DNA of 64,000 nt from a virus. The notes under the pieces are model-generated. The model ran no database searches and had not been told where the DNA came from. It saw nothing but the letters and a program-made list of their open reading frames with translations. The stretch lies in IMG/VR virus record IMGVR_UViG_3300045988_106519, positions 51,386 to 115,385 of that record; one strand, written 5' to 3'. Below, in pieces: positions 15,642 to 41,500 of this stretch. The position numbers were made by a program, and so were the translations under genes. Numbering within the stretch: position 1 is the stretch's first letter; each line of letters opens with the position of its first letter.

Positions 15642-15642
15642 G

Positions 15643-15657: not shown

Positions 15658-15683
15658 AATGTTTAATTTAATACTTAATAAAA

Positions 15684-16673: not shown

Positions 16674-16706
16674 TGTAGTAGTCTTTGTTTCATAAATTAT
16701 ATGATG

Positions 16707-16748
16707 GAGGGATTGGGGAATGTATCCCTGATCCCTCTTTTTTATTTT
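16707..16748 (+). terminator. strong rho-independent terminator
   Basis: GAGGGAT...ATCCCTC stem with inner GGG/CCC pairs, then TTTTTTATTTT. Confidence 0.75.
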
Positions 16749-16766
16749 ACTTAAAGAAAGGAAGAT

Positions 16767-17742: not shown

Positions 17743-17779
17743 AAAAAGTAAAAAAGTAAAAGAGTAAAAAAGTAAAAAA
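17739..17779 (+). repeat. five tandem GTAAAA(A) units, period 8-9 nt
   Basis: GTAAAA begins at 17739, 17748, 17756, 17764 and 17772. The same unit occurs twice at 54173 and 54181. Confidence 0.6.
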
Positions 17780-17783
17780 TAAG

Positions 17784-17880
17784 GAGTTAAGAAGTTAAAG
17801 GAGTTAAGCCAAATGCTTTTTCTTTAGAGTAGAGCAGGAGGGTATACTATAAATCAAACAAAAACTTCTTAACTCTTTTT
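17784..17880 (+). terminator. long-loop hairpin with U-run (candidate terminator/attenuator)
   Basis: Perfect 13-bp pairing GAGTTAAGAAGTT(17784-17796)/AACTTCTTAACTC(17863-17875), then TTTTT. A second GGAGTTAAG at 17800-17808 could pair alternatively. Confidence 0.45.
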
Positions 17881-17955
17881 GCTTTAGAGCTATACTATTT
17901 TTAGTATAAAAAGACAATAAAATCTTGGAACTTTTAGCTTAAAACAAAAAGAGAT

Positions 17956-18657
17956 ATGTTAGTAAAGGAAATTGTATATATGGTGCTGGACTTGGCAAAG
18001 GCAAATACTTCAGATGATTCATTCTTCAATGAAGACCATGTGCTATTTCTACTAAAGAAATACAGGAGTTTTCTGATAAAAAAGGAGCAGGAGAAATTGA
18101 AGACAACTACTGACATAGCATCAGAGTTTGAGTATCAGCAGATATGCCTTGCCTTGGAGAAAGTACCAGCAATAGATGGAAGTCCATGTACTGGAGGATA
18201 TTATCTTAGAACAGTGAAAAAGATACCAAAGCTACTTGAAGGTAATATGCCAAGAGTATATCCTATAGATTTCTATCAGGGTATAAATATTACTTATGTG
18301 CCAAGAGACAAGATGAGATATATAGGCACAAACAAGTTCTTGAGAAACATAATATATGTGTCATTGGGAACAGACTTGCATCTGTATCTTAAAAGTATAA
18401 ATTCACAATTTCTGTATCTTGAGAAAATAAGTATGAGTGCTATATTTGAGGACTTTGATGAGATAGAGAAATATAAATGTGAAGGAGATACTACAGTATG
18501 CGATGTAATGGAGAGGGAGTTTCCAATAAGAGAATATCTGGTACCTACCTTGACAGAGCTTGTAGTAAAAGAACTTGTAGGAAGCATGTATAAGCCTGTA
18601 GATCAAGTTAATAATGCAAGTGATGATATGTCAAAGGTAGCAACAAAACAGAGTTAG
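17956..18657 (+). CDS. hypothetical virion-block protein (233 aa)
   Basis: ATG ORF, co-oriented. Confidence 0.6.
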   Translation: MLVKEIVYMVLDLAKANTSDDSFFNEDHVLFLLKKYRSFLIKKEQEKLKTTTDIASEFEYQQICLALEKVPAIDGSPCTGGYYLRTVKKIPKLLEGNMPRVYPIDFYQGINITYVPRDKMRYIGTNKFLRNIIYVSLGTDLHLYLKSINSQFLYLEKISMSAIFEDFDEIEKYKCEGDTTVCDVMEREFPIREYLVPTLTELVVKELVGSMYKPVDQVNNASDDMSKVATKQS

Positions 18658-18659
18658 AA

Positions 18660-19187
18660 ATGGATTATAAGGAGTTTAGAACCAAGCTTATGAAGGCAGA
18701 TGCTCCAAAGAAAACAAAAGTAAGAAATTCATGGGGAGTATATGATGCTTATAAGCAGATAAGAAAGAAAGGTTGGTATGATATAGGCAGACCTTTGAAA
18801 GAGCATGAGTTCTACAGTATTGTTAGAGGTATAAATGACTTATTAGCAGAAGAGATAGTCAAGGGAAATACAATAAAGTTTCCACATAATATGGGGGAAC
18901 TTGAATTGAGAAAATACAAGCCAGAGGTAAAAATAGTAGATGGAAAGTTAAAGATAGGTTATCCTATAAATTGGGACAAAACAATAAAACTTTGGTATAA
19001 GGATGAAGAAGCAAGGAAAAACAAAACTCTTCTTAGATATGAGCCAAAGTACATATATCACATAAAATACAATAGACATCATGCTATGTATGAGAACCAA
19101 GTTTTCTATGAATTTGATGTAAACAGATTTATAAAACGATCATTAGTAAAGAGTATTAATAACGGTAAAACAGATACATTATGGTAA
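18660..19187 (+). CDS. hypothetical basic protein, weak HU/IHF-like segment (175 aa)
   Basis: EFYSIVRGINDLLAEEIVKGNTIKFPHNMGELELRKYK has a helix-strand pattern reminiscent of HU/IHF. Weak call. Confidence 0.3.
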   Translation: MDYKEFRTKLMKADAPKKTKVRNSWGVYDAYKQIRKKGWYDIGRPLKEHEFYSIVRGINDLLAEEIVKGNTIKFPHNMGELELRKYKPEVKIVDGKLKIGYPINWDKTIKLWYKDEEARKNKTLLRYEPKYIYHIKYNRHHAMYENQVFYEFDVNRFIKRSLVKSINNGKTDTLW

Positions 19188-19942
19188 CAGAGATACAATA
19201 TACAAATATAAGGAGAGTGCTTGATGACTTAGTAGAGCACCCATTATTGAGAAACTTAACTCTTGAGCAAGTGGTAAGGCATACTCTTAGGTTTATATCT
19301 CTGCATGGTTATCCAAGGCTATACCAAGATAAGATTGCTGAAATAGAGATAAAAGACTTTAGAGGACTATTGCCTTGTGACCTTATATCAATAATACAAG
19401 TTAAGGGTCTTGATACAGGGATTTGTCTGAGAGCAATGACAGATACCTTTGCTAAGGGATTGAGGTCAAAGCCAAGAGAAGTAAATGCACATAAGGACTT
19501 GTTGAATAATATTCAGAATGAGTATATACCACCAAGGAATGAACATACGGAAGAACTATCATTCAAGACACAAGGTAGAGTAATATTCACATCATTTCCA
19601 GTAGGAAGAGTAGAAGTGGCATATAAGGCAATACCAGTAGATGAAGATGGTTTTCCGTTGTTGATAGACAATGAGACATATCTCAATGCACTGGAGGCAT
19701 ATATTAAGGTAAAGGTATTCACTGTAAGGTTTGATACAAACAATATGTCAGCAGGAGTATTAAGTAATGCACAGACAGAATATGCTTGGGCAGCACATCT
19801 ATTGCAGAGTGAGATGACAACACCATCAGTGTCAGAGATGGAAAGTATCACAAGGTATCTTAATACATTGATAAAGCCAGTGACACATTTTGATAATGGA
19901 TTTAAGAACTTAGGAGATAGAGAATATAGGAGGAGATATTAA
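19181..19942 (+). CDS. hypothetical virion-block protein (253 aa)
   Basis: Overlaps the upstream gene by 7 nt. Confidence 0.6.
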   Translation: MVTEIQYTNIRRVLDDLVEHPLLRNLTLEQVVRHTLRFISLHGYPRLYQDKIAEIEIKDFRGLLPCDLISIIQVKGLDTGICLRAMTDTFAKGLRSKPREVNAHKDLLNNIQNEYIPPRNEHTEELSFKTQGRVIFTSFPVGRVEVAYKAIPVDEDGFPLLIDNETYLNALEAYIKVKVFTVRFDTNNMSAGVLSNAQTEYAWAAHLLQSEMTTPSVSEMESITRYLNTLIKPVTHFDNGFKNLGDREYRRRY

Positions 19943-19943
19943 T

Positions 19944-22900
19944 ATGACAAAGAAATATATCAATTGGAAAACAAAAGGCATGAACAAAGATATGTCAGTT
20001 TCTGCCTTTAATCCAGAGTTTGCTTTTGAGAATCTTAATATAAGACTTGCTACCAATGAAGGTAACACAATGATGTCTTGGGTAAATGAAAGAGGACCAA
20101 AGAAACTGAGACTTCGTGTAGACACTATGCCTTGGGCTACAGAGAATATTGATGGTAGGTATGATAGTAATGTTGATGAAGAAACTAAAGAGATAACTGA
20201 TACAACTGTTATCAGAGGAATACCTATAGGTACAGCTGTGCTTAATCATAAGTTAGTGTTGTTTACTGCCAGTGATTATATCTATCTATTTGAGAAATCA
20301 GATGATAAGGATTATGACCTTAAAGGCAAGATTCTTTATTTTGGTTCATTAGGATTTAGTCCTAATTATCCTATAGAGACAGTAGTATCTTATGAGTCAG
20401 AAAATATTCAGAAAGTGTATTGGACAGATGGACTGAATCAACCAAGAGTAATCAATATAGCTCCTTCAATGGATTATAAGACAAATAAGTACATTAGTTC
20501 CTCTTTTGACTTTGTACCAGAGTTAGCTTTAAAAGAAACTGTGTCTGTTAGTAAGATGTATGGTGCAGGAGAGTTTCCTCCTGGAGTAATACAGTATGCT
20601 TTTACCTACTATAATAAATATGGTCAGGAAAGCAATATATTCTATACAACACATTTACAGTATATCTCTTATACCAATAGAGCAGGAAGTCCAGAAGAGA
20701 AGATAGCAAATTGTTTTAAGATACAGGTAAACAATATAGACAAGAACTTTGATTATATGAGGATTTACTCAATTCTCAGAACATCAAAGGATGACACACC
20801 ATTAGTTAAGAGAATACAGGATTTAGAGATAAAAGAGACTACTGAATCCCTGACCTATATAGATAATGGAACAAGTGGGGAGACTGTAGACCCTACAGAG
20901 CTTTTGTATAAAGGCGGAGAAGAGATAGCAGCCAAGACAGTAGAGCAGAAAGATGAGACACTGTTTTTAGGAAATATAGTAGTAACAAGACCTTCTATTA
21001 TTAATATAAAGAATATATTATTGAAGGAAAATGAAGTTACTAAAGAAGAACCTTTAATAAAAGATGAGTTAAATAAGGTTACAGCAATAGCAAAGCCAAG
21101 GAACTTTAGATTAGCTTCTAAATCTCCTTTCACTTACTATAATACTCTTGATACTAAAGGTGATTATCAAGGAGCCTCTTGTTTTAAATCCAGGGAATAT
21201 TATAGACTTGGAATACAGTTTCAGTATAAGAATGGAAAGTGGTCAGAGCCTTGTTGGATAGGAGACAAGCAATGTAATGCAATACCTTTAGAAGATACTG
21301 AGAAAGGAATTATAAAAGTTCCAGAGTTTGAGTATAAGATAAGAGATGTAGGGGACACTTATTCAAATAGTATATTTGAGAGTTTATATGAACAAGGTTA
21401 TAGAAAGGTAAGACCAGTATTTGCAATACCAAGAACACAGGATAGAACCATTCTATGTCAAGGAATAGGATGCCCTACAATGTATAGAACAGTAGATAGG
21501 AAGAATAATTTGCATGCTATTGCATCATGGTTGTTTAGAACAGGATATTTTACAAATGATGCTGGTTCTGATTGGAACATACCAAATAGTAAATTCACTG
21601 AAAAGGATGGATATACAGGAGGAGGTTATGTAGATATAAATGGAAATCTTGTATCACAGTATAAGGAACCATTTATTGTTTTTCCCTCAAATATTCAAGG
21701 ATTCAGTTCTATATTAGTATCTCCATATCTATCAAGTACAGAAGTTATGGGCACATTTAGTGACGATGATTCTTATAAGATAGATATAGACTTTATAACT
21801 TTAAATTCTCCAGATGTAGAATTTGATGACTTTATGGTTCATACAGACTTCAAGGGATATGATTTAAGTACTGTTGGGCGTGCTACCTTTGAGAAGACCT
21901 ATGGAGATATAAGTATTCAAACATCAACACCAACAATGGGTTCAGATGCAGCAGGATTCATTCATAGAAGTATTGTAGCTCCAGGATGTGGTGCTCTTAT
22001 TTCAGGACTCTTTTATAATGATTATGTAGTAGATGATTATGAAAATGTAAAATATAGTGCTTATAATACCAGTAGTCCTCCTATAGATTTTCCAATTTAT
22101 ATGTGGCATAAGAATGGTTCTTTGAACAATGATGTAGCCAGAGATAACAGAAGTGCTCAACTTTTAAAAAAGAAAATAAGTAACTATAGATTTGGTTCCA
22201 ATATTGAATATGCAGAAATAAAAAAAGCTCCGATATTAGGAGCCTCCGATATTCAATTATTCAATGCTGACTATCTATCTGTAGTGAAAGTTAATGGGCA
22301 GATATATCAAGGTAATGTAGATACTATGGTAGTTCCAAGTGAACCTTCCCCATATTATTTAGTAGGAGATCCTTGGAGAAAAAATGTAGATACAACTTAT
22401 AAATCAAGAAGTTACTTCAGATTAACACTTAAAGATCCAAATGACACCAGTTCAGAAAATGGTATATGGGAATTATATAAGAAAGATAATACTTGGGATT
22501 GGTATAAAAGAAGAAAAGAAAACAATAATATAGGTGATAGGGTAAAAGGATTGGCTCAATGGAGAGATGGTGTAAGTATAAAATATAAGTCTACTCCACA
22601 TTTGGTAGCAAGTATTGGAACAGATGTTTATACTTGGGTAGGTACAGAGTCTTTAAGTATGGGACAAGCTCCTATAATTGAAGTTTTTAAGGCATATAAC
22701 AAAGATGTGATATTTGGAGGAACATCAGATGAAGCATTGCAGGCAGCTACATGGATACCATGTGGACCACCTATTGCATTTGATGAAAACACTAAACAAT
22801 GTACATTAGAGTTTAAATGGGGAGATACATATTTTCAGAGATATGAATGTCTGAAGACATATCCTTTTACTACAGAAGACAAAAATCAAGTAATAGAGAT

Positions 22901-24230
22901 AGCATCCTTTATGGTAGAGACAAGAGTGAATATAGATGGAAGATATGATAGGAATAGAGGACAGTTAAGTAATTTGAATATGACCCCTCAGAACTTCAAT
23001 CTTATAAATCCAGTATATTCACAGATGGATAATTTCTTCTCATATAAGATAATGGATGAAGATAGCTATAAGAACACATCATTTCCAAATACAGTTACTT
23101 GGACTAAGACCAAGCAAAATGGAGCAGATGTAGATTTGTGGACAAACATCACTATGGCTAATACTTTGGAGATGGATGGAGACAAAGGAAAGATAAACAA
23201 GCTTACAAGGCTTAATAATCAGTTGCTTTCATTCCAAGATAGTGGTATATCCCAGATACTGTATAATGAGAATACACAAATTTCTACTACAGAAGGAGTA
23301 CCTATTGAGATAGCAAACTCACAGAAAGTACAAGGTAAGAGATACTATTCAGACACAGTAGGTTGTTCAAATAAGTGGTCTATGGTGCAGACACCTTTAG
23401 GCATATACTTTATGGACAGCAATGAGAAGAGTATATATCTGTTTAATGGTCAGTTGAATAATTTGAGTACAGCAGGAGGCTTTAATGCTTGGGCTAAGCA
23501 GAATATTCCATCAGCAGAAGTAGAATGGACACCTAATATGTTTGATTCATTTGTAACTTACTATGACAAACTTAATCAAGATGTATTGTTTATCAATGGA
23601 AATATAGCATTGGCCTATTCAGAAAAGTTTAACTGCTTCACTTCATTCTATGATTATGGTAGAACGCCCTATTTTATTAATCTTGATGATATGGGAATAT
23701 GGATGAAATCTTCAAATTTATGGCAACATCAAGCAGGAGGATACTGTAACTTCTTTGATGTAACAAAACCCTTCTCAATGACATTAGTTGCTAATCAAGA
23801 GCCACAGATGGATAAGATGTTTACTAACTTGGAGTTTAGAGCTTGTGTAGAAGGGGAAGGGGTATATGATGAAATTAAGGATAAGTTTACTCCTATCTTA
23901 CCCTTTGACACTATAGAAGTATGGAATGAGTATCAACATGGAAAGCTTAGTCTTAGTGATAGAAATGGTCATGACAGATTTACTCATGGAAACTTAGATG
24001 GTAATGCTTCATTAAACAGAAAGTTCAGAATGTGGAGGTGTGATATTCCGAGGGACAATGTAGAGATAAACAAGATAAATGCTGCTACAGAGTCCTTGAT
24101 GGGAATAAAGAGGTTTAAGGCAAGACCATTGGATAGAATAAGAAATCCTTGGGCATATATAAAGCTTACAAAAAATGAAGTCATAAGTAAGATAGAGGTA
24201 CATGATATCATGGTAACATACTTTGAATAA
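19944..24230 (+). CDS. large tail/nozzle-type structural protein (1428 aa)
   Basis: AGGAGG RBS. Size and position after the neck-like genes support the call; the function is positional. Confidence 0.4.
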   Translation: MTKKYINWKTKGMNKDMSVSAFNPEFAFENLNIRLATNEGNTMMSWVNERGPKKLRLRVDTMPWATENIDGRYDSNVDEETKEITDTTVIRGIPIGTAVLNHKLVLFTASDYIYLFEKSDDKDYDLKGKILYFGSLGFSPNYPIETVVSYESENIQKVYWTDGLNQPRVINIAPSMDYKTNKYISSSFDFVPELALKETVSVSKMYGAGEFPPGVIQYAFTYYNKYGQESNIFYTTHLQYISYTNRAGSPEEKIANCFKIQVNNIDKNFDYMRIYSILRTSKDDTPLVKRIQDLEIKETTESLTYIDNGTSGETVDPTELLYKGGEEIAAKTVEQKDETLFLGNIVVTRPSIINIKNILLKENEVTKEEPLIKDELNKVTAIAKPRNFRLASKSPFTYYNTLDTKGDYQGASCFKSREYYRLGIQFQYKNGKWSEPCWIGDKQCNAIPLEDTEKGIIKVPEFEYKIRDVGDTYSNSIFESLYEQGYRKVRPVFAIPRTQDRTILCQGIGCPTMYRTVDRKNNLHAIASWLFRTGYFTNDAGSDWNIPNSKFTEKDGYTGGGYVDINGNLVSQYKEPFIVFPSNIQGFSSILVSPYLSSTEVMGTFSDDDSYKIDIDFITLNSPDVEFDDFMVHTDFKGYDLSTVGRATFEKTYGDISIQTSTPTMGSDAAGFIHRSIVAPGCGALISGLFYNDYVVDDYENVKYSAYNTSSPPIDFPIYMWHKNGSLNNDVARDNRSAQLLKKKISNYRFGSNIEYAEIKKAPILGASDIQLFNADYLSVVKVNGQIYQGNVDTMVVPSEPSPYYLVGDPWRKNVDTTYKSRSYFRLTLKDPNDTSSENGIWELYKKDNTWDWYKRRKENNNIGDRVKGLAQWRDGVSIKYKSTPHLVASIGTDVYTWVGTESLSMGQAPIIEVFKAYNKDVIFGGTSDEALQAATWIPCGPPIAFDENTKQCTLEFKWGDTYFQRYECLKTYPFTTEDKNQVIEIASFMVETRVNIDGRYDRNRGQLSNLNMTPQNFNLINPVYSQMDNFFSYKIMDEDSYKNTSFPNTVTWTKTKQNGADVDLWTNITMANTLEMDGDKGKINKLTRLNNQLLSFQDSGISQILYNENTQISTTEGVPIEIANSQKVQGKRYYSDTVGCSNKWSMVQTPLGIYFMDSNEKSIYLFNGQLNNLSTAGGFNAWAKQNIPSAEVEWTPNMFDSFVTYYDKLNQDVLFINGNIALAYSEKFNCFTSFYDYGRTPYFINLDDMGIWMKSSNLWQHQAGGYCNFFDVTKPFSMTLVANQEPQMDKMFTNLEFRACVEGEGVYDEIKDKFTPILPFDTIEVWNEYQHGKLSLSDRNGHDRFTHGNLDGNASLNRKFRMWRCDIPRDNVEINKINAATESLMGIKRFKARPLDRIRNPWAYIKLTKNEVISKIEVHDIMVTYFE

Positions 24231-29044: not shown

Positions 29045-29052
29045 TATATTTA

Positions 29053-29080
29053 GGGGCAGATTATTTTCTGCCCCTTTTTA
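29053..29080. terminator. bidirectional rho-independent terminator
   Basis: GGGGCAG/CTGCCCC stem followed by TTTTT. Lies between convergent genes. Confidence 0.7.
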
Positions 29081-29086: not shown

Positions 29087-29626
29087 TTAAAGACCTAAGT
29101 CAACAGTTTTCCATTCATTAATGTCTTTATCATAAAGATAAAGTTTATTATTAGACATCTTACCTATTTTTAAATTATTTTTTCTTGCTGATATTTCAGA
29201 AGGAGTAAGTTCTCCAAGTTGAGACAGAAACTTTACAGAAGTTTCTTTACCAGAATTATCTATGAATATACATAGTTTAAAAGGCTCTCCAGTTGAATTA
29301 TTAGTGTAACTTCTTACTTGCATTTTTGGACCATACTTTCTTGCAAAATCAAGAAGTGACCATGACTGAATAAACAAAGAAGGTTGTTCAGTTGTTCCTA
29401 CATCATCAATACTAGTACCTTTATGATAGTATCTCCAAATGAGATAAACTACACATCCTAATATTAATGGGATTGTTACTAACCACCCAATAAACGGTTC
29501 CCAAAAATGATGGCCTCTTTCACCTGCGATAGCAATTAATACAATACTTGCATAAATGCTATATCCAATAATGTAAGGTAAATACTTTTTCATAATCAAT
29601 CTTTTATTATCAAATTTTTTATACAT
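29087..29626 (-). CDS. two-TM membrane protein with C-terminal domain X, copy 2 (179 aa)
   Basis: Two hydrophobic helices (YIIGYSIYASIVLIAIAG; WLVTIPLILGCVVYLIW), then QSWSLLDFARKYGPKMQV...VKFLSQLGELTPSEI...WKTVDLGL-end. Confidence 0.7.
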   Translation of the reverse strand: MYKKFDNKRLIMKKYLPYIIGYSIYASIVLIAIAGERGHHFWEPFIGWLVTIPLILGCVVYLIWRYYHKGTSIDDVGTTEQPSLFIQSWSLLDFARKYGPKMQVRSYTNNSTGEPFKLCIFIDNSGKETSVKFLSQLGELTPSEISARKNNLKIGKMSNNKLYLYDKDINEWKTVDLGL

Positions 29627-30398
29627 CTACATCTTTCCAAGCTTTTCTTCTTCCCTTTATCAGACTATAATGTCCTGCCTTTGACTTGATAACAGCCAAG
29701 TCCTCCTTCATATCTGCTATCTCTCTTTCAGTAAGTACACCTAATTTTGAAGAGAATGCTACAAATGTCTTGGTTCCATTTTCTTGTGTGAATACACAAC
29801 TCTTGAATTTCTCACCTGTGTCATGATTAGTAAATTCTCCTACTTGCATCCTCGGGCCAAACTCTTTTATAAAGGTAATCAAGCTCCATGTGTTAGAAGA
29901 ATGTCTATCATTTTTCTTGGAGTCGGAGGAAACATGGGAATTTTTATAGGATGATATTGACTTAAACTCCTCTTCTGTCATTTCCTTATAAACATTATAT
30001 TTCTTGAATATCTTTATAACCTCTGACTTTAGCTCTTCTTGAGTAAGAAGGTTCAGCTTTGAATTAACCTCAATATCCCATCTTAAAGCAGCACCTATTG
30101 AAGCCAATATCTGTGTATCATTTGACCTAAGCATGAATCTCCACATTCCACATATAACAGAAAGGAAGTCAATATAATTAGGAGCTATACCTTTATTTGC
30201 TGATTTCTTTAGGAGCCTTTCTATTTTTGAAGAAGACACAACAATTCTCATTACATCCCTTGCATTGTTTCTACTATGGTCTTGGTAATAGAATCTATCA
30301 AGAAAATGATTTCTTATTTCATAAAGATCTAATGAACAGTTCTTGTATAAGTCATATAATGAGTACTGCATGATACATAGTTTTTTCATATAACGCAT
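29619..30398 (-). CDS. two-domain protein with C-terminal domain X, copy 3 (259 aa)
   Basis: The C-terminus NTWSLITFIKEFGPRMQVGEFTNHDTGEKFKSCVFT...TFVAFSSKLGVLTEREIA...WKDVDV-end is close to 560..889. Confidence 0.7.
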   Translation of the reverse strand: MRYMKKLCIMQYSLYDLYKNCSLDLYEIRNHFLDRFYYQDHSRNNARDVMRIVVSSSKIERLLKKSANKGIAPNYIDFLSVICGMWRFMLRSNDTQILASIGAALRWDIEVNSKLNLLTQEELKSEVIKIFKKYNVYKEMTEEEFKSISSYKNSHVSSDSKKNDRHSSNTWSLITFIKEFGPRMQVGEFTNHDTGEKFKSCVFTQENGTKTFVAFSSKLGVLTEREIADMKEDLAVIKSKAGHYSLIKGRRKAWKDVDV

Positions 30399-30488
30399 GA
30401 TTACTTGATTTATTATATTGCAGTTAGTAAAAAAGGTACACTTTTTAAGTATTTTATTTAAGCTATTCTTACACTAATCCTTAATGCC

Positions 30489-30496
30489 TACCTTTG
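30489..30496 (+). promoter_or_regulatory. -7 box TACCTTTG
   Basis: 33 nt upstream of the ATG at 30530. Confidence 0.45.
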
Positions 30497-30529
30497 TACA
30501 TATAGATTAATTGAATAATAGATAATATA

Positions 30530-31375
30530 ATGTTAGACAAAATTTCTACACTAATACAGTCCTTTGCTGATTTTCTTGGAGGATTTAGCAAATTGAATGA
30601 TGTCAAAGATCATTCAGTGACTGTGTTCTTTAAAATCATTCTTTGCACCCTTGGTGCTCTTTTCTTTGGTAAGTTGTTTCTACGTGATGACCTTTATGAC
30701 TGGGTTGTCACTATAGCCTTGAAACCTAATCCTATTACTATTGCTATTGTTGTTGGGCTTGGAATGCTTGTCTATTCTGTGTATGCACAGAGAAGAATAA
30801 TGACAGCAGTAACAAGTGCTATTCAGCAACAGAAGAAACAAGACAAGCTTAAGAATAAAGAGTGCTATGCACAGACTTCAAGGATAGAAGAAGAAGCTAA
30901 TGCTCTTACCAATCATCTTAGAAAGTCACTCAATTGTGATATAGTGACTATAGAGCTTATGCATAATACAGAGAAATATATTGGAGGTTATCATAAGAGG
31001 TTCTATGATGAAAGTTTTCCATCAATTAATACTGCTGAGGGAATCACCTTTAACTATAAAGACTTCCAATGTATCCCTACCAATATATTCCCTATTATAG
31101 GACATATACTGAAGACTAAGTTTAAGTGGTTTACTTCTATGGATGAAGTAGCAAAGATTGATTCTGGCTATGCACATATTCTCAAGGAAACTAATTGTAC
31201 TGCCCTTGGTATGAGAGCTATGAAGACTTCAAAGAATGAAGATCTTGGAATACTAACAGTAACATGGAGGAAAGGACATGAAGACAGGATTCCTGATATA
31301 GACATAATACAGGATATGATGACTGAGGTTGCTTCTAAACTTGAGGTTCTGTTGGATATGTCAGCTTATGAGTAA
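30530..31375 (+). CDS. two-TM membrane protein with ~170-aa soluble C-terminal domain (281 aa)
   Basis: Hydrophobic helices at roughly aa 30-50 and 65-85. The C-terminal domain is of unknown fold; a GAF-like guess is unsupported. Confidence 0.55.
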   Translation: MLDKISTLIQSFADFLGGFSKLNDVKDHSVTVFFKIILCTLGALFFGKLFLRDDLYDWVVTIALKPNPITIAIVVGLGMLVYSVYAQRRIMTAVTSAIQQQKKQDKLKNKECYAQTSRIEEEANALTNHLRKSLNCDIVTIELMHNTEKYIGGYHKRFYDESFPSINTAEGITFNYKDFQCIPTNIFPIIGHILKTKFKWFTSMDEVAKIDSGYAHILKETNCTALGMRAMKTSKNEDLGILTVTWRKGHEDRIPDIDIIQDMMTEVASKLEVLLDMSAYE

Positions 31376-31411: not shown

Positions 31412-34400
31412 ATGAGTAATAATAGTTCATGTATTTTATATCCTGATGCTCCTAATGGAGAAGAGTCAAGATTGTATAAAAAGTTATTAAAGAAACTTCC
31501 AGACCGTCCACTTACTAATTGGTTCTATGCTTACTATAATATGCCTACATCAGATATAGCAAACAAAATGGACCAAGCAGGCTATCAGAGAAATAGTCAA
31601 GGGCAACATAATGCAGAGGATTTATTGAAGTTTCTCGACTATGGAACTATGGAAGCTGAGATAGCAAACCTCTCTTCTGCTGAAATACAGCTTGGAGCTG
31701 TAGATACAAATGGTAAAAGAGTAGACTTTACCAATGCTGAAGATGCTTTAAGAAAAGCAGATGACTTTAACAACACTCATAAAGGACTTGTTGCTACTGT
31801 TGTTCAATATGGTGATGTTTATAATATTATTGTTGCAGAAAAGAACTCAAGAACTCATACTTATGCAGATACAATTAAGGATAATCTTAAAGCATGGGAT
31901 ATTTATAAACAAGTGTTTAATGCTGTAGGTGTTGACATTACTTCTGTGCCTCAAGAAATACAAAGTGTGTTCAATCCTCTTAATGATGGGTTAGCTAAGT
32001 ATCTAAAAAGTGTAAGTAAACTAAACATTACTAATATTTATAAAAGAGATGCCTTGCTTCTTTTTTCACTGAATCCAAACTCTCGTCATATACAGAATTT
32101 GATTAATGCTTTTGGTTCTATTGAAGATGCTGCACAAGCTCTTGATGACTTTAATCATGGTTCTATTAATCTATCTAATCCCCAACAAACACTATTATTA
32201 AGAGCTGTAAACGATGCTCAAAAATTTCAAGGAATAGATTTGGATGCACTTATTACTCAGATAAAAGGAATATGGGTTAATACTGCTGCATATAGTGTAG
32301 AACAAGATATTAAGCAAGAAATTCGTAGCCTTGATAAGAAGTATAATATAGAGGTCAATGAAATTCATAGAGCCACTAAGAAAATCAAAACCCTTTCTGA
32401 CGCTGCTGCTGATGCTGTTGTCACTCTTCAAAGACAGATTAGACAATTAGAGAAAGAGAAAGGTAACAATTCTGAAGGTAGAAGACTTGAAATAATACTT
32501 AATAGGTTGATGAAAGAGCTTGCTTGTAAGAAGTATTGTTCAGGTGTACTTAACTTCCTGGGAGAAGCTTCTGTACAGATTTCAAATATTGACAATATGC
32601 TTCAGAATATTCCTCAAACAGGTACTGAACTTGAAAAGGCTTTTGGTACAGCTAAGATTCTACAAGACATAAAATCTCTTAAAGACCAATACTATACTTT
32701 GGTTTCTGCACTTGCGGATGAAAATTTGATTATTGATGAGTCTATCAGTCAGAATGACATTAATAATATTAGAATGTCTGCCAAGGATTTGAAGGATTTT
32801 TTTGATAAAAAGGATAAAGCAATAGATGATCTTACTGAAGGTACTATGATTAATCTTATGTTACAGATAGTGGGTAATACAGCCCCAGATGGCCAATCTA
32901 TCATTAATGCAGTTAGAATGGCAGCTGCTGATTCTTCTTATATGAATTATCTGTATAGTATGGGCAGAGCCTCAAACCCAGTAGTTGCAGCTGCTGGTTC
33001 TATCATTCATAATGCCCAAGACTCTCGTGATAAGAAGATAAATGACATCTCTCTTAGAATACGCAGGGCTACAGACAAACTTTATAAAGCAGGTTTCAAT
33101 TCAGAGTTTATGTATGAAGATGAAGAACATATTGCAAGTGATATTGATTGGGAACTCTATAAGGCTACAAGACAAGCTAAAATAAAATCTTTCTATGCTC
33201 AGAATCTTCGTGGATTTGATTTAAAACAGGCTATTGAAGATTGGGAAGACCAAAATACTGAAGAGCGTGTAGTTGATAAAACCAATGGAAGAACAGAAAG
33301 AGTTCCAAATAGTAATTACCGTAAGCAAGATAATTTCCAAAAAGATTGGTCTCCTGAGCAAATAGAGTATTATGATACTATGATGCAGCTTAAGGGAGAG
33401 ATAGGTTCTCTGCTTCCTACTTATGCTCAGCATCAATATCTTCCTCCTCAGGTTAGACGAAAATTTCTTGATGCTATGAATAATGCTAAAAGTATTAAAG
33501 ATGTGGGCAAGGCAATTAAAGATAAGATACAAAACCTTTATAAAGTGAGAGAAGATGATGAGAACTATAATACAAATGGTATTATTGATGGTGATGAGTA
33601 TTCTATTACACATGGAGCATTTGACAATACACCTCTTAGACAGATACCTATATTCTTTATTAATAAGGTAGAGCAAGGTGAACTTTTGAGAAACTTCTCT
33701 TCAGGTATACAAGCACTTGCTGGTACAGCAGTAAACTATGACACTATGAGTCAGGTTGCAGATGTAGTGGAGTTTATTGGTAATTTCATAAAAACACAGG
33801 AAGGTAAGGATAATAAATCACAAGCTGATATAGTACAGAATGGTGAGATACGAGTATTTAAAGACCTTTGGAAAAGAGCTGTAAATACCAATACTCAATC
33901 CATTATTGAAGGCTTTATCTCTCAGCATATCTATGGACAGTCAAGAGACCCTAATGAGAATAAAACATGGTCAAAGATATTTGGTAATATAGTTGCTTAT
34001 TCTTCATTTAAAGGTCTTGCAACAAATGTTAAGGGTGCTGTTGCCAACTATCTGATGGGTGAGTTTCAAATGCTTATTGAAGCAGGTGCTGGTGAGTTCT
34101 ATGGCTTTAAAGATTATGCCTGGGCACATACTAAACTGTTTGGTAATACAGGTGTTAAAGGAGAGTTTGCAGAACTTCTTACTAATAATATCAATCATAA
34201 GAGTGTTCTTATGAGAGAGCTATTTGATCCTCTGCAAGAGAATTTCTCTCAGAAGAGCCATACAAAGTACTATACAAGCATGTTTAGACAACTTGTTTCT
34301 CATGACTGTTCATTTATAGGCTACTCCTCTGGTGAGTATCTTATTCATTATGTCAATATGTATGCTCTTCTTCATAATCAGAAGGTATTGCTTAATGGTA

Positions 34401-35308
34401 AGAAGATAAGCTTATATGATGCCTTTGAGGTCAAAGACAAGCAGGATGGTAACTCAGAACTACACTTGAAAACAGGAGTCACAGACCTTGATGGTAATGT
34501 CATTACTGATGACTTTATTGATAAAATAAGAAAGAAGCTGAGATATGTAAACCAGTCTACACATGGAGCAATGAATGATGAGGATAAAGGTATTCTTCAT
34601 CAGAAATGGTGGGGACGTGGTATAATGAACTTTCGTCAGTGGATGGTAGAACATTATTCACGAAGATGGAGAGCACGTCATTTTGATGCTTCTCTTGGTA
34701 TGGATAGGGAAGGTTATTGGGTAAGTCTTTGGAAAGGGCTTGCCAATGATGATACTAAGGACATTTGGAATAGAAAGCAACATGCAAAAGCTATAGGTAT
34801 GTTTATGAAAGATTTCTATACTTTTATGCTCAGGTCAGAAGCACAATGGCATAATCTTGATGAAATGCAGAGATATAATATCAAGAGAGTCAGAACTGAA
34901 ATGTTGATGTTTGCTTGTCTGTTGGGACTTAGTTTTACTCTTGGAGCACCAGAAGACCATAAGAAAGAAGCTTGGCGTAGATTTTGGATTTACCAAACTA
35001 AGAGAGCACTGCTTGATACAGAAGCTTCAATGCCTGTACCACAAGCAGCTTCAAGTATTCTTACTACAATCAATTCTCCAATGGCATCTTTAAATACTAT
35101 AAATGGTTTCTTTTATGCTTTTTATGGTCTTGGTAATGGAGATGTATTTACTGAAATTAAGTCTGGGGACCATAAGGGTGAAAATAAATATGTAAGAAAC
35201 ATGCTTAAGTATGTTTTCCCTTTCTTTAAAGATTGGGAACAAATGCAGAAAATGGATGAGGATGATGCTATTTTCAAAGTATTTGAAAATTCACCGAGTA
35301 ATCATTAA
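31412..35308 (+). CDS. very large hypothetical virion/ejection protein (1298 aa)
   Basis: Long ATG ORF with a hydrophobic segment near the C-terminus (MLMFACLLGLSFTLGA). Codon usage is T-ending. Confidence 0.45.
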   Translation: MSNNSSCILYPDAPNGEESRLYKKLLKKLPDRPLTNWFYAYYNMPTSDIANKMDQAGYQRNSQGQHNAEDLLKFLDYGTMEAEIANLSSAEIQLGAVDTNGKRVDFTNAEDALRKADDFNNTHKGLVATVVQYGDVYNIIVAEKNSRTHTYADTIKDNLKAWDIYKQVFNAVGVDITSVPQEIQSVFNPLNDGLAKYLKSVSKLNITNIYKRDALLLFSLNPNSRHIQNLINAFGSIEDAAQALDDFNHGSINLSNPQQTLLLRAVNDAQKFQGIDLDALITQIKGIWVNTAAYSVEQDIKQEIRSLDKKYNIEVNEIHRATKKIKTLSDAAADAVVTLQRQIRQLEKEKGNNSEGRRLEIILNRLMKELACKKYCSGVLNFLGEASVQISNIDNMLQNIPQTGTELEKAFGTAKILQDIKSLKDQYYTLVSALADENLIIDESISQNDINNIRMSAKDLKDFFDKKDKAIDDLTEGTMINLMLQIVGNTAPDGQSIINAVRMAAADSSYMNYLYSMGRASNPVVAAAGSIIHNAQDSRDKKINDISLRIRRATDKLYKAGFNSEFMYEDEEHIASDIDWELYKATRQAKIKSFYAQNLRGFDLKQAIEDWEDQNTEERVVDKTNGRTERVPNSNYRKQDNFQKDWSPEQIEYYDTMMQLKGEIGSLLPTYAQHQYLPPQVRRKFLDAMNNAKSIKDVGKAIKDKIQNLYKVREDDENYNTNGIIDGDEYSITHGAFDNTPLRQIPIFFINKVEQGELLRNFSSGIQALAGTAVNYDTMSQVADVVEFIGNFIKTQEGKDNKSQADIVQNGEIRVFKDLWKRAVNTNTQSIIEGFISQHIYGQSRDPNENKTWSKIFGNIVAYSSFKGLATNVKGAVANYLMGEFQMLIEAGAGEFYGFKDYAWAHTKLFGNTGVKGEFAELLTNNINHKSVLMRELFDPLQENFSQKSHTKYYTSMFRQLVSHDCSFIGYSSGEYLIHYVNMYALLHNQKVLLNGKKISLYDAFEVKDKQDGNSELHLKTGVTDLDGNVITDDFIDKIRKKLRYVNQSTHGAMNDEDKGILHQKWWGRGIMNFRQWMVEHYSRRWRARHFDASLGMDREGYWVSLWKGLANDDTKDIWNRKQHAKAIGMFMKDFYTFMLRSEAQWHNLDEMQRYNIKRVRTEMLMFACLLGLSFTLGAPEDHKKEAWRRFWIYQTKRALLDTEASMPVPQAASSILTTINSPMASLNTINGFFYAFYGLGNGDVFTEIKSGDHKGENKYVRNMLKYVFPFFKDWEQMQKMDEDDAIFKVFENSPSNH

Positions 35309-35317: not shown

Positions 35318-35350
35318 AAGGAGTGATACTATTAAGGTGTCACTCCTTTA
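35318..35350 (+). terminator. hairpin terminator candidate
   Basis: AAGGAGTGATA/TGTCACTCCTT (one wobble); weak U-run. Confidence 0.45.
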
Positions 35351-35505: not shown

Positions 35506-38500
35506 ATGCCAATAAATAAGCCACAAGGATTGAAAGGACTGCAAGGATTAGGTGGTCTTTCTAAAACACAATATGATAGTTTTATAGAGAAGAACAGAAA
35601 CTTGATTTCACAGCATGGATATGATCCTACATATATTAATAATTTGTATTCAAATAAACAGTTTATAGATAGGTATGGTGTTGAGAAGTTTAAAGCTATG
35701 CCTAATATAGATATGCGTAATGCTATGTATAAGGACGATGTAGTAAATACAGAGTTTAGTAGGTTATATAGTCCATTTGATGTAGATGGTGTAAGAAACA
35801 ATAATAGAGGACTTGGAGCTGATTTTGAGAAATATAATCAACTCTCAACAGATGCTAAGTTAAAACTAATGGAGAGTAATTACTTGACTCCAAATGAGTT
35901 TAATAATAAATGGGAGAGGCATATAAAGGAAATTAATGATAGGGGTAAAGTACTTGGACAAAGTAGAGCAGGTGCATTTATGCCTTTAAGTGCAGTACTT
36001 AATGCTCCTGCTGCTGAGAGTTCTACAGGTAGTGCAAGCGTAGATTTTTTAAGAGGTATTTCAGGTGATGAAGCAGGAAGGAAATTAGCACTGGATAAGA
36101 ATAACAGGATACTTGAGAAAATATACAATGATGATGTAGACAATGCTGCAAGCAAGTTTGCATCACAGGTAGCTGATGCCTATTATGGTTCAGAGATTGC
36201 AACAATGAGTGACACTCAAGTAAAGAAAGCTTTTGTACAAGCCATCAATGGTAATCCAAGGAAGGGAGACTTAGGTATTCCAGAGTTAGCATCACATTAT
36301 GGAAATGGTACTGAAAATCAAATAACGTCAGAGATGCAAGACTTTAGTATTGATGATATGAGACAAGTGCTTGCAAAGAAGAGAGTCTATGATGCCTATA
36401 TGTCACCAGATATGGCAATGACAGCATTGAATAATGATGCGAAAAGATATATTAGAGATCATCAAGGAAGTGTAAAGAGATTTGGATTGTTCCTAAAAGA
36501 TGTAGGCATCTCTTCAATGAGCTACACAGCAGATAAACTGAATGGTATAGCAGAGATTTACAGAATGGGACAAGATGCTTGGGCAGAGAAACCCATTGTA
36601 ATGGTAGATGATAAAGGAAATATTCTTGACCCTAAGAAGATAAAAGTTATAAGTGACAAGCAGGGAAGATTGCATTATCAAGACAAAGATGGACAACTAC
36701 ATTCAGTACATCAAGAGCAAGTAGACTATACTACATTACATAATATGGGAAAGAATCCTGATGGTAGTGATATAGAGGGAGCTTTTGGTGTAGATTGGAT
36801 GACACTGAATCCACAATATTGGACAAGGGCAGAGCAGTATGGAACCCTTGATGATAATGAGCAAAAGCAATATGAGAAGTTAGGAAGCAGCCCTTATAAG
36901 GTAGCATATAATCCTAATGAAGACAGTGATATAATGTATGAGGCATTTAAGATGATGAGCTTTGGTATTGCAGATGCAGCATCACAACTTATACCTTATG
37001 GTGTAGGAATATTAGGAAAATCATTAAGTACAGCAAGTAAGGTAGGAAAAGTTGCAAGAGGCTTTGGTAAAGTACTTGACACTACTGGAAAAATGCTTAC
37101 AGCAGAGACAAAGATAGGACAAGTAACACAGGGTACAGCAGGTGCTCTTGGTATTGCTTATGCTTATGGTAGAGGAGCATTTCAAGAGACACTGCAACAA
37201 AATCTTGCAAATGCAGAGGAAGCAGCACAAACAGCAAGTAGGAATGACATCTATAATCAATATAATAGTGACAAAGACTATAAGGCAGGAGTAGATAAAC
37301 TTATCAATGCAAGAGCTGCAAGTATGAAGGCTGACTATTTAGCTAAAATTCAGAAAGACAGCAACATGAAAGTAATAGATAAGAATACCCTTGACAAGAT
37401 GATTCATGCAAGGGCACAGGAAGCTGTGCTTGGAGAATTGGTGCAAAATAGAATAAAGGAAAGAATGGCATCAAAGGAATATGCAGATTTACAACAGAAA
37501 GCCATTGATGGTGCAGGAGATGCAGCTTTCAACTCATTTTTAACAGAAGGAATAAAGTATGGATTTGTAAATAACTTTGGATATAGGAAATACTTATATA
37601 CCAATCCTGCTGGACTGTCAAAGAAAGTATCTTCTACATTTAAGGGATTAGAAGAAATTACAACAAAAGAAGGCAGGCAGAGATTGACAGCAGGAGCAAG
37701 TAAGTTTCTTACAAGAGATCAGAAGCTGAAGGAGTTTGGTAAGACATTAGGTTCACAAGCATGGGGAGGAGCATGGACTAATGGCACTGATGATATGCAA
37801 GTAGATGCAGCAGAAAGAATCAATGAGGATAGCTTTAAGAGATATCTTGATGCCTATCAGAATGGAGAAGCCATAGCAGATATTTATGGTTTTGCAGATG
37901 GACTATATTCATATATGAAAGGACTAAGTAACTCAATGGGTCAAGAGACAACATGGAATGCAGCATTGGTTGGAGGTCTAGGAAGTATAGTGAATTTCAC
38001 TCCTAACTTTGCTAATATAGCAAGGCTTGCTACAAAGGAAGGTAGAGAAGCTTACAATAATAACTTTACAAGAAGAATTGTAAGAGATGAGAATGGAATA
38101 CCAGTGAAGAATGAAGATGGTTCCATTAAATATGAAGACCTTAAAAGAACAGATAACTGGAGAGAAAGAGCAAACTATTTCATTCAGAATGGTGTGCTAA
38201 ATACCTATTATGGAAAGAAACAGAGTGAAAGAGACTTACAAAGTCATGCAGACTATGTTAATGACTTATTGGACAGTTATAATGACTTTAAGGATATAGA
38301 GGGACTTGTAGCATCAAATGGGGCTTCAGAAAATTTAGAGAGTCAGGGAGATGCAAAGACATTACAGTTTATAAAAGCACTTCATTCTATTAATGCTCTG
38401 AATAGGTTAGGAGAGAACTCTAATGACCCAACTACATTATCATCGGTAGTACAGAATGCAAAAAACTTCATTGCTAAGGCTTCACAGCTTAATGATGAGA

Positions 38501-41500
38501 ATGGAGAGAGTCCTTTCAGTGAAGAAGAGATAAGCAATCTTCTTTCACAATACTATGCTGCAAACCCAGACTTAGACCAAAGTGAGTATAATTCACAGAA
38601 AGTATTATACACCATTGCACAGAATGCACAGAAGCTACAAGAAGCATCAGAAGCCTTTGACAAGGCAGAAGGTGAGATTCAGAAGATAGAGAAAAATAGA
38701 GGTGAAGCCATAGATCCAGAGGTGAGAACAAAGATGAAAATTCAGCAAGCACTCAATGGACATTGGGAAGAAAGAAAACAAAAAATGCAGTCAGAGATAG
38801 ACGATGCTTCAACAAGTGAGCAAACACATGATGCAAGTACAATCATAGCAAGTGTTGGAGGTATAGACAATGCCAAAGCACTTGTTAAAGTATATGATAA
38901 ACAGAAAGCTGAGATAGAAAAAGAACTTACAGAACAACAGAAAAGAACAAAGACTTTTGATGAAGAATACAAAAATGCAACAGAAGAATTGAACACTGCA
39001 AGAAGTAATGAAGATAGTGAGGCAGTACTTAAAGCAGAGAAAAAACAAAGAGAGACTAAAGCAAGGCTTGATTCATCAAAGGAGCAGGAGAATTATCTTG
39101 AAAGACTTGTTTCAATGACTGAAGACAAGAAGAAATCTTTGGAAGAGAACTTTACAGATGTTAGTGCAAAGATACTAACTGCTGATGAAATATTTGCACT
39201 TGACCCAGTGACAAGGGCAAGGATGGTGAATAAAGATAATAGAGAACTGTATAGCAAAGAACAGCAAAGAGAAATAGAGAAACTTGAGCAGAGGCTTATT
39301 ATGAGAGATGCTGATGCTCTTCAGAAAATACAAGACATAGCACTGTTGACACAAAGAATAGATTCTAATAAGGATGCTTATAGTAGAATGGCACAGAATC
39401 CAGAGGCAGCAGCAGTTTCCTTGGAGGCTCAAAGATTACAGTCAGCTGAAGCTGCATATAAACTGATAGGTCAGAGGAATGCAGAGACTGTTGCAGACTT
39501 TATCAATAAATTTGATGAAGGACTAAAGAACCGTTCTGATATATCTGAAGATAGTAAGAAGAACTATGTATTCAGAACATTAAGAAAACTCAATACAGGA
39601 CTGCTTGATATTATAGATGAAGACTCCATGCTTCCTAAATATCAGCAGCAGGTAGTTGATGCAAAGGAATGGGGTAAAGTTGTTGAGGATATTGTTTCTA
39701 TAATCAGTCAGTCAGACAAGGGAGAAGATTGGCAAAATAATATATTGAAGAATATAGACACAATAGTAGAAAATGCCAACAATAAAGAAGAGATTATGTC
39801 AGCTCTTGAGAAAGTTGTAGATGATACAGAAGGTTCAGAATCATCGAAAGACTTTGAATATATCCTTGATGGTATGAGGAAGTTAGGTTATCTGAGAGAT
39901 GCTACTATTATTGAGAATAGAAAACAAAGGAAGCAACGTGAAGCAGAGGAAGCAAAGAAGAAGGAAGAAGAAAAGAATAAAGTAGATGAGGCTGCAAAGA
40001 ATGCTGCTGAGAAAAAGACTGTTGAAGAGAAGGAGAAGCAACAGAATGAAGAAGGAATGGATATGGGTAGAAAACCAAATAAAAATGATGTTATAAATAG
40101 CACAGAAGATGTAGATATATTTGGTGATGAAAAGCCTTCAGAGGAGCAAAGTAAAGAAGAAGTAGGAGAAAAGCAGAGTGCTACAGCACCTGTTACTCAG
40201 AATATAAGAACTATCTTGAGTGATGGGTCTGGGGATAGGAGTGTTACAGCAGGAGATATGTGGCATGGTACAAAGGGTAATGCTAAGAAAGGAAAGTTCA
40301 CTGTGACAAAGATGGGAGATACTGTAACCTTTGATACAGATGAGAAGAATGATGTGCTGAGTGTTACTTCTGATGAATATGATGTAACTCCTGAGACTAA
40401 GGAGCATGAGGAAAATGCAGTGTTTGAGGCAAGTTCTATGGAGAAAAGAGGTGATGATTGGTATTTTGTTGGTAATTTTGCAGGAACCAAAAATACTACA
40501 GAAGTGAAAGCAAAGAAATCTTTTGACATAGAAAAGGCAATAAAAAGACAGCAGGAATCAAGGGAAGCAGAACTTGCAGCCAAGGGAGTAGATGTTGATA
40601 ATGTGAATGTTGTTGACAATGGGGATAGTGTGCAAGGTAGATCTGAGAATATTGATGAACAGAATAATAACATTACTCCTGATGATAAGGTGATAGAGGT
40701 GTCGGAGATTAATGAAGATGCTGATGAATTGAATGGTATAGGAGAGCATAATATAGAGACAAATGTTAATACTATTAGTGGTAATGCAATGAGTAGATAT
40801 GAGTCTGATCCATTAGCGAAGGATGGTAAACTTGTTAATAAAAAAGGCAAGGATGATAGAAAGCAGATGGATGAATATTATGCTTGGATGGATGCAGCTG
40901 GAATAAAGTTGCAGAATATTATTGACAGAGAACTTGCAAAAATACTAAAGAGAAATCCTAATGCCAAGGTGAAGTTTATGGCAGTGAGACCAGAAAGCAA
41001 TGCTACTAATGATAGCAGTATGCAGAGACACTTAATGCTTGTATTAGACTATGACAATAGTATTAATAAAGGAATTACTGCAATACACAACGATGATAAT
41101 GGTGGAGTGATAGAGAGTCAAGGAAAGAAGTATCTTGTGATAGGAGTTGCTGGTTATAGGAATGGAAACTTTGCGCAACAGTCACTCTATAATGTGTTAT
41201 GGAATCCTATATCTCCTACTTCAAGAAACAGTAAGGGAGAACCATTTGGATTGATGATAAAGCCTAAAAAGGAGTTCTTTGAGACACATCCTAATGAAAG
41301 ATTCTATGTGAATGAGAGTCTAAGTACTGAGATAGTGCCATATTCTTTGATACCAGGGTATATTGTTAAGCAGGGATTGAATGACAGTAATACAGAGTTC
41401 AGGAGTGTAAGAGAACTACTTGCTGACAAGGAGAGAAATCCTATGGGATATGATATGCAAAGTGTAGCATGGGGAATACAAGAATTGACAAAGTTCTTGA

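Follow-up and report, generated by a model that had tools for sequence, protein, structure and literature searches.

An antisense gene pair in the cargo-gene region of a crAss001-like phage appears to mark a site of accessory-gene exchange built on one unannotated domain

The subject of this analysis is a pair of minus-strand genes, A and B (29087–30398), that interrupts a block of plus-strand genes in a 64,000-nucleotide stretch of viral DNA (positions 51,386–115,385 of IMG/VR record IMGVR_UViG_3300045988_106519; this whole stretch is called the window below). Comparison with related phages indicates that the island formed by A and B consists of dispensable, fast-evolving accessory genes, and that its site is one of continual exchange of genes that bear the same domain of about 95 amino acids (aa). 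We give roughly an even chance to the explanation that A and B make up a dispensable accessory cassette with rapid turnover and encode two non-virion proteins that act in phage–host or phage–phage conflict. The window is a portion of a crAss-like phage genome of about 115 kb, and an identical region is present on a 115,405-bp metagenomic contig. By sequence comparison, the carrier phage appears to be a Steigviridae-like crassvirus related to crAss001; its major capsid protein shares 66%–67% identity with the major capsid proteins of crAss001, IAS virus, and other Steigviridae.

Gene A extends over 29087–29626 on the minus strand as its longest open reading frame (ORF; 179 aa) and encodes a two-helix hairpin followed by the shared domain. 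Gene B (29619–30398, minus strand, 259 aa) encodes a helical N-terminal domain (aa ~9–154), a disordered linker (aa 155–167), and the shared domain at its C terminus, and gene C (560–889, minus strand, 109 aa) is a stand-alone copy of the domain. An earlier reading of the window, made from the sequence alone (the sequence-only reading), had described the two minus-strand ORFs and the third copy, and we confirmed all three as described. The architectures that it had given to them were also borne out, with two hydrophobic helices in A, an N-terminal domain of about 155 aa in B, and nothing but the domain in C. It had further described A and B as overlapping; the ORFs do overlap by 8 nt, but this is probably an artifact of taking the longest ORF, because A most likely starts at M12 (MKKYLPY, 29593), the start used by homologues and by the gene caller, which gives a protein of 168 aa and leaves a gap of about 25 nt to B.

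The domain copies occupy 29090–29386 in A (minus strand; aa 81–179 of the long ORF) and 29622–29921 in B (minus strand; aa 160–259). When the C-terminal ~95 aa were compared by BLASTP, A matched C with an E value of 5e-25 (42% identity), B matched C with 2e-35 (56% identity), and A matched B with 6e-21 (41% identity). The paralogy that had been proposed is thus far beyond chance, and the consensus sequence that had been offered for the domain agrees with our alignment. A profile hidden Markov model (HMM) detected exactly three copies of the domain in the window, those in A (E = 3e-34), B (1e-38), and C, and nothing further below E = 4. Clusters at 90% identity contained 84 members for A and 349 for B, spread across many contigs, and B had 50 homologues at E ≤ 1e-5. 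The ratio of nonsynonymous to synonymous substitution rates (dN/dS) against relatives was 0.25–0.37 for A and 0.07–0.32 for B, compared with 0.04–0.07 for flanking genes. Because both genes recur in clusters on many contigs and have dN/dS values typical of purifying selection, these comparisons indicate that A and B are real genes under purifying selection.

We fetched twenty related phage loci by means of the neighboring gene p281 (30530–31375, plus strand), which encodes a protein with two transmembrane (TM) helices, is the divergent partner of B, and is conserved also where the island is missing. B was nearly always present and was always oriented divergently from p281, and the other content of the island varied. 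At one locus (L034), the island is missing and gp50, gp49, and p281 are contiguous; at eight loci (L021-type), A is reduced to a TM-only remnant of 62 aa; and at another (L032), B is broken into two ORFs. Alternative genes beside B are found in L015, L016, L018, and L030. In phages whose p281 proteins are 93%–99% identical to that of the window, the gene or genes beside B differ. The types found there are A-type genes; genes for proteins of 146, 149, or 153 aa with one TM helix and the domain; a gene on the opposite strand for a 291-aa protein with a TM helix, an N2 module, and the domain; and genes for domain proteins of 304 or 569 aa. The sequence-only reading had called the placement of the island moron-like, and an accessory placement of this kind is supported by its absence from L034, by the truncated and split copies, and by the swapping of its neighbors between phages with flanks that are 93%–99% identical. 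Against the L015 phage, B is 48% identical with a dN/dS of 0.19, whereas p281 and gp49 are 75% and 77% identical, each with a dN/dS of 0.04.

The island resembles the morons and accessory hot spots of lambdoid and T7-like phages (bioRxiv 10.1101/2023.04.06.535777) in that it is a small opposite-strand unit in a conserved late or structural block, is polymorphic for presence and absence, has its content rapidly replaced, and encodes proteins that evolve faster than their neighbors. It differs from them in being carried by a crAss-like phage for which lysogeny is not demonstrated, in that all alternative genes at the site encode the same domain, and in that the neighboring core cassette of p281 and gp49 also inverts or relocates.

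This cassette includes the homologue of crAss001 gp49, an RNA-polymerase-associated cargo protein (31412–35308, plus strand; BLASTP identity of 24% over ~1000 aa, E = 6e-49). In L015, L017, and L025, the segment 29619–35308, which contains B, p281, gp49, and a terminator, has been inverted with respect to its flanks. The breakpoints are intergenic, one at the stop codon of B and the other past the terminator of gp49, and in L017 a 5′-truncated domain ORF lies at one of the junctions. We rejected a programmed inverton: the junctions share no inverted repeats (the best pairs are 20–23 nt long and at most 80% identical) and the junction sequences are unrelated, and we therefore attribute the inversions to evolutionary cassette shuffling. 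Recombination via the domain-coding repeats was also rejected as the simple cause of the inversion, the breakpoints being intergenic and outside the domains. We conclude that p281 and gp49 form a self-contained cassette, with a TAnnTTTG motif at 30489 and a hairpin terminator at 35318–35348 (plus strand; −20.8 kcal/mol, z −5.8), that is inverted or relocated among relatives; L017 has a different hairpin at the place equivalent to this terminator. Where the sequence-only reading had seen one long structural operon, there are instead several transcription units, and the adjacent p281–gp49 pair is itself a mobile cassette.

In a lineage at about 75% identity, the island lies between gp49 and p281, A is usually the 62-aa TM stub, and the order gp50→gp49→p281 resembles the order gp50→gp49→gp48 of crAss001. 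Loci of this lineage (L021, L022, L024, L007, and L038) also carry an extra insert of about 250 nt between the p281 promoter and start codon. The insert, which is not in the window, seems to code for a small peptide, MGICKIPF...CRVCNKYHIGH, that is rich in Cys and zinc-ribbon-like. The gp49 homologue itself exists as two alleles that are 47%–49% identical (L016, L018, L019, and L020 5877–9833 versus the window) beside p281 genes that are 93%–98% identical, and this comparison points to strong mosaicism in a virion cargo protein associated with RNA polymerase.

The island is bounded on both sides by candidate regulatory elements. Between the convergent genes gp46/C2 (plus strand) and A (minus strand) lies a G+C-rich hairpin (29052–29075), which we assessed by its folding energy and for flanking T-runs. 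Its folding energies on the two strands are −19.6 and −17.5 kcal/mol (z about −4.6), and a T-run is present on the plus side only. The strong hairpin on both strands fits the bidirectional terminator that had been proposed and the lack of a T-run on the minus side does not; the element is predicted to terminate transcription of the plus strand, and perhaps of both strands. The divergent intergenic region between B (minus strand) and p281 (plus strand; 30399–30529) holds TACCTTTG and TACCTTTT. The former (30489–30496, plus strand) is a Bacteroidetes-type −7 element of the form TAnnTTTG, lies 41 nt upstream of p281, and is invariant on the plus strand in nine aligned relatives; the same motif is found 32–53 nt upstream of eight gene starts in the window. 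On the B side of the spacer there is only the near-match TACCTTTT (30438–30431, minus strand), 40 nt upstream of the ATG. A scan of the sequence for σ70-type promoters gave no enrichment. Of the divergent promoter region of the sequence-only reading, the plus side has a conserved −7 element and the side of B no more than a near-match.

The opposite orientation of the island and its own promoter-like and terminator-like elements had led the sequence-only reading to propose that A and B are morons expressed from a resident prophage, conferring immunity or defense on the lysogen. A tyrosine recombinase gene in the window speaks for this explanation (3341–4525, minus strand, 394 aa; Pfam Phage_int_SAM_5, 1.4e-12, with RHTW and H...Y catalytic-type motifs). 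It adjoins a tRNA-Arg(TCT) gene (4633–4708, plus strand), and lysogeny may therefore still be open to the phage. To judge from its sequence, such a recombinase is unexpected in a crAss001-like phage, and its role could be integration, dimer resolution, or plasmid-like maintenance. One homologue, moreover, is found on a contig of 651 kb. The carrier is, however, a relative of crAss001 among the Steigviridae, which are reported to be unable to establish lysogeny (PMC8375218). The recombinase, A, B, and p281 clusters are confined to contigs of up to ~115–190 kb, or about one genome, and the members that we read do not go beyond about 155 kb; the recombinase cluster is seen on contigs of 146 kb or less only. 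A scan of GTDB genomes for integrated copies returned only phage-like contigs that had been binned into metagenome-assembled genomes (MAGs) and one unrelated island, and no repressor or attachment site was identified. Expression from a prophage is thus not supported, and we consider the prophage explanation quite improbable.

The 651-kb contig (L038; ERZ28622754 scaffold_1, 651,275 bp) carries, at 14665–20744, a crAss-like set comprising lysozymes, p281, B, and gp49. It also encodes a 3998-aa gp50-like protein with Kinase-PolyVal and PIF1/AAA helicase domains. This contig may represent an integrated copy, a concatemer, or a mis-assembly.

On one side, the island is flanked by homologues of crAss001 gp44, gp45, and gp46, and on the other by a homologue of gp49. 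Comparison with crAss001 identified the homologues of gp44 (muzzle, MUZ; 19944–24230), gp45 (cargo 1, C1; 24302–27640), and gp50 (55756–63930, minus strand), and the homologue of gp46 (cargo 2, C2; 27653–29044, plus strand) matched Pfam crAss_CARGO2 at 3e-45. In crAss001, gp45, gp46, gp47, gp49, and gp50 are cargo proteins that have been found in virions by mass spectrometry (PMC10172136). The block in the window therefore shares gp44, gp45, gp46, gp49, and gp50 with the gp44–gp50 cargo block of crAss001 (Bayfield et al., 2023, PMC10172136). It differs in that crAss001 has neither A- or B-like genes nor p281, and in that gp49 of crAss001 lies on the opposite strand beside gp50, whereas here it lies between C2 and a gene for a 2453-aa protein.

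The position of the island inside the cargo gene block, together with the conserved adjacency of B to p281 and gp49, is what would be expected if A and B encoded minor structural proteins or chaperones for cargo packing that happen to lie on the other strand. Three observations make this highly improbable. In crAss001, for which both the proteome and the structure of the virion are known, A and B have no counterpart; A and B are present, absent, or pseudogenized among close relatives; and the domain is also found in contexts that are not phage-like, with kinases and leucine-rich repeats (LRRs). None of A, B, and p281 matched crAss001 gp43–gp51 by BLASTP, and crAss001 has no gene at the position of the island, between gp46 and gp47. 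With no homologue among the virion or cargo proteins of crAss001, and with this position empty in crAss001, A and B are, as far as sequence comparison can tell, not virion genes. The p281 protein itself matched no family in Pfam or PHROGs, and its one match to a PADLOC model was marginal (Cas6_IVD, E = 4e-4 across 60 residues). The constant pairing of B with p281 suggests a possible functional tie of B to p281 and gp49.

We also searched for relatives of the domain. A, B, and C matched nothing above noise in Pfam-A 2025 or PHROGs v4 and no model in PADLOC 2.0. Across 37 diverse members of the family, there was no consistent match in NCBIfam 20.0 or Pfam (the best, Myb_DNA-binding_7, was obtained for 5 of the 37 at E ≥ 0.009), PHROGs and PADLOC were silent for these members as well, and the best match of the domain profile to PDB sequences was to a designed repeat protein (E = 0.016). 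When the models of C and B were compared with the PDB by Foldseek, a check that the sequence-only reading had named, no match reached E ≤ 0.001 and all had E ≥ 0.05 and template modeling (TM) scores of at most 0.41. The statement that the domain could not be assigned to a family thus holds for Pfam, NCBIfam, PHROGs, PADLOC, PDB sequences, and Foldseek against the PDB, and these searches placed the domain in no known structural or housekeeping family. Against BFVD, significant Foldseek matches of the C model were confined to uncharacterized crAss-like proteins, including those of a crAss-like virus with three paralogues. Our literature searches on the domain, on “STK_OB,” and on crassvirus accessory or anti-defense regions returned nothing relevant.

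The family is large. An exhaustive profile search yielded 448 clusters at 50% identity, of which 249 had E values below 1e-10, and a word-indexed search yielded 1,218 clusters at 90% identity, whose members are called “hypothetical” wherever they are named. Among 50,697 deposited phage genomes, the domain was found only in cr116_1 (in two places) and IAS virus, and none of these genomes contained DNA nearly identical to the window. We conclude that this unannotated domain family is large enough to deserve a family entry of its own.

The AlphaFold model of C (pLDDT 83.4, pTM 0.74) and that of B gave the same order of secondary structure elements by DSSP, E-H-E-E-E-H-E-E, or β-α-[β-β-β-α-β-β]. 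The OB fold is a five-stranded β-barrel with the strand order β1-β2-β3-α-β4-β5. The weak Foldseek matches of both models were mostly to OB proteins (LEF-3, aminoacyl-tRNA synthetase [aaRS] anticodon-binding domains, HIN, the single-stranded DNA-binding protein [SSB] Rim1, and ribosomal uS12), and the models suggest an OB-like fold, as yet unproven, after an N-terminal β-α. Known OB-fold domains (uS12, aaRS anticodon-binding, SSB/LEF-3, and HIN) share with the domain its predicted β-β-β-α-β-β order and its small, barrel-like size, and they are its sole recurrent, if weak, structural neighbors in two independent searches. They differ from it in that the domain has the extra N-terminal β-α, ends in a conserved W..VDLG(L) tail, is not basic but acidic to neutral, and shows neither a sequence relationship nor a significant match to any of them. 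In the B model (mean pLDDT 85.5 for the whole protein), the N-terminal domain (aa 9–154) is all-helical, with pLDDT values of 93–98, and no structural neighbor of it was found when the B model was compared with the PDB by Foldseek.

The OB-like topology, and the preponderance of nucleic-acid-binding OB proteins among the weak Foldseek matches, raise the alternative that A, B, and C bind single-stranded DNA or RNA and assist replication, transcription, or genome ejection (by handling the genome as it enters at the membrane, for example) as part of ordinary physiology. The broad conservation of the stand-alone copy, its location among small non-structural genes, and the invariable pairing of B with p281 next to the RNA-polymerase-associated gp49 would fit such helpers. 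Stand-alone domains are, however, mildly acidic, with a median pI of 5.8 and a median net charge of −1, and a classical nucleic-acid binder is therefore not favored. The absence of any significant structural match, the absence or decay of the island in viable relatives, and the fusions to LRRs and kinases, which suggest protein recognition, also argue against this alternative, and we regard it as doubtful.

We counted domain architectures in the best 150 representative clusters of the family. Seventy-four were stand-alone, 24 were anchored by N-terminal TM helices, 27 had a soluble N-terminal extension, 25 had the domain in an internal position ahead of a long C-terminal extension, and 8 contained two or more copies of the domain. 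The TM-anchored members have either a two-helix hairpin like that of A or a single helix, the soluble N-terminal extensions include a B-like family, and the stand-alone form, as in C, is the most widely conserved in the family. The many N-terminal fusions fit the proposal of the sequence-only reading that one module has been put to diversified use. A second recurrent, unannotated N-terminal module was seen to precede the domain in a number of proteins, among them L016 3162–4037, L018 1752–3461, P0121, P0139, and P0197. Its motifs resemble “...RYSKL.KLI..SIDSHF.VTEN..” and “MGLFDIFK...RY..LL.LFK....F.ITRNE,” and it is present in phage-encoded proteins and in LRR fusions.

The 24 clusters with TM anchors, like A itself, would suit superinfection exclusion or inter-phage competition, in which membrane-tethered A and the one-TM variants would, at the cytoplasmic face of the inner membrane, block the ejectosome or the incoming DNA or cargo of a second, related crassvirus, and B and C would modulate or protect the ejected proteins of the phage itself. 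Genes for ejected cargo proteins surround the cassette, near-identical phages differ greatly in its content, as conflict between phages would lead one to expect, and gp49 is itself present as two very divergent alleles in the same population. Yet the 74 stand-alone clusters comprise soluble proteins, eight relatives have lost the domain of A while keeping the TM stub, no similarity to a known exclusion protein was found in Pfam or PHROGs, and the topology of A on which this alternative leans is a predicted one. We judge it to be rather unlikely.

The long C-extended members are fusions to BspA-type LRRs, and two of these clusters also have an N-terminal Ser/Thr kinase. In proteins of the forms Pkinase–domain–LRR_5 and N2–domain–LRR_5, the domain is 50%–62% identical to C, and these copies are closer to C than is the copy in A of the window. 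The kinase region of proteins P0156 and P0194 gave a match to the STK_OB model of PADLOC (8e-51). In combining such a kinase with the domain, P0156 and P0194 resemble the STK_OB candidate defense kinases and other defense Ser/Thr kinases (PD-T4-6, mad6, and MkoA); only the kinase part matches the model, and A, B, and C have no kinase. A kinase–domain–LRR gene adjoins genes for a helicase, a second kinase–Sel1–LRR protein, a DUF6939 protein, and DarT, another domain fusion adjoins a Schlafen AlbA_2 gene, and one copy of the domain is found within a Bacteroidales contig of 237 kb, with helicase/DUF1848 genes on one side of it and an integrase gene on the other. A survey of domain neighborhoods in related phages, which the sequence-only reading had suggested, thus revealed turnover at the locus itself and contexts with kinases, LRRs, DarT, and helicases elsewhere.

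The gene cluster with DarT (L009; contig ERZ27280357 k141_69391, 265–10628) comprises Pkinase–domain–LRR_5, an SF1/Schlafen-like helicase, Pkinase–Sel1–LRR_5, DUF6939, and DarT. Both of its kinases match PADLOC STK_OB (about 1e-50), and it may be an undescribed defense or conflict locus.

We propose that the cassette occupies a rearrangement-prone spot in the region of the genes for cargo (ejected) proteins, and that A and B would be made inside the infected cell. Each protein would end in the same compact, β-rich, probably OB-like binding module, and its variable N-terminal part would set where the module works. The two-helix hairpin of A would tether the module to the cytoplasmic face of the inner membrane, with the N-in/C-in topology predicted by the positive-inside rule; in B the module would be joined to a helical domain of about 150 aa of its own kind; and in C it would be free in the cytoplasm. 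Because it has no conserved catalytic-type constellation of polar residues, is only about 100 aa long, and is mildly acidic to neutral, we infer that the module is not an enzyme but a head that binds a protein or ligand. The cassette would then bind its target, mask it, or sequester it, and the kinase–LRR proteins with this module would read the same target. Genes that are non-virion, dispensable, and exchanged, and that evolve under purifying selection but faster than their neighbors, bear the signature of conflict accessory genes, and the presence of the module in kinase–LRR proteins beside DarT and helicases hints at a role in defense or counter-defense.

A more specific version, which we put forward tentatively and think unlikely, is that the module is a recognition head common to crAss-like phages and to the immune-type kinase–LRR proteins of Bacteroidales (or of mobile elements). 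The phage copies would then be decoys or sponges that catch the signal or partner read by these proteins, or the kinase–LRR proteins would be sensors with a phage-derived “integrated decoy.” If true, this would account for the expansion of paralogues and the shuffling of cassettes.

Several points weigh against the explanation by conflict. No experiment and no annotated homologue links the domain to any activity, its structural matches all fall short of significance, and A, B, and C of the window match no PADLOC model. C is highly conserved on many phage contigs of ~100–145 kb, and this sequence conservation looks more like that of a core early function than that of an arms-race gene. Neither the position of B nor its divergent arrangement with the core gene p281 changes, which could reflect a regulatory or assembly link to p281/gp49. 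Finally, the kinase–LRR proteins are encoded on short contigs (≤19 kb) with a phage-like G+C content of 36%, and they may be products of phages or mobile genetic elements instead of host defense genes.

Three other genes in the window were noted. The 2453-aa protein (35506–42867, plus strand) occupies the position of crAss001 gp47, and BLASTP and Pfam comparisons gave no match to gp47, gp50, or the other proteins tested. Another antisense gene in the plus-strand block (47040–48026, minus strand) encodes a 328-aa protein with a C-terminal GerE/LuxR helix-turn-helix (5.7e-5) and has a TAnnTTTG motif 51 nt upstream. In the small-gene region that contains C, the gene at 2003–2470 (minus strand) encodes a 155-aa protein that matches DUF5675 at 5e-30 and, more weakly, Tlde1 and YkuD (L,D-transpeptidase fold), and that may act enzymatically on the cell wall.

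Phages of the order Crassvirales are more abundant in the human gut than any others, and the order is hard to culture. To our knowledge, almost nothing is known of how Crassvirales handle host defenses or one another. Phage accessory hot spots are a well-known kind of thing; what is unusual here is the position in the cargo module of a crassvirus, the exclusive use of one unannotated domain in many fusions, and the occurrence of this domain in kinase–LRR proteins beside DarT. The locus is a defined hot spot of accessory-gene turnover inside an otherwise conserved cargo module, and the domain defines a large unannotated family with stand-alone, membrane-anchored, helical-fusion, LRR-fusion, and kinase-fusion forms. 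Together they connect accessory proteins of phages, in a concrete way that can be tested, with kinase–LRR proteins encoded beside DarT and helicase genes. If the link is untrue, the analysis still yields a clean annotation of a variable region and of the rearrangements of the gp49 cassette in Steigviridae. If it is true, it would open a route to the anti-defense biology of Crassvirales, and, should the phage copies act as decoys, it would reveal a new family of anti-defense proteins in the most abundant phages of the human gut.

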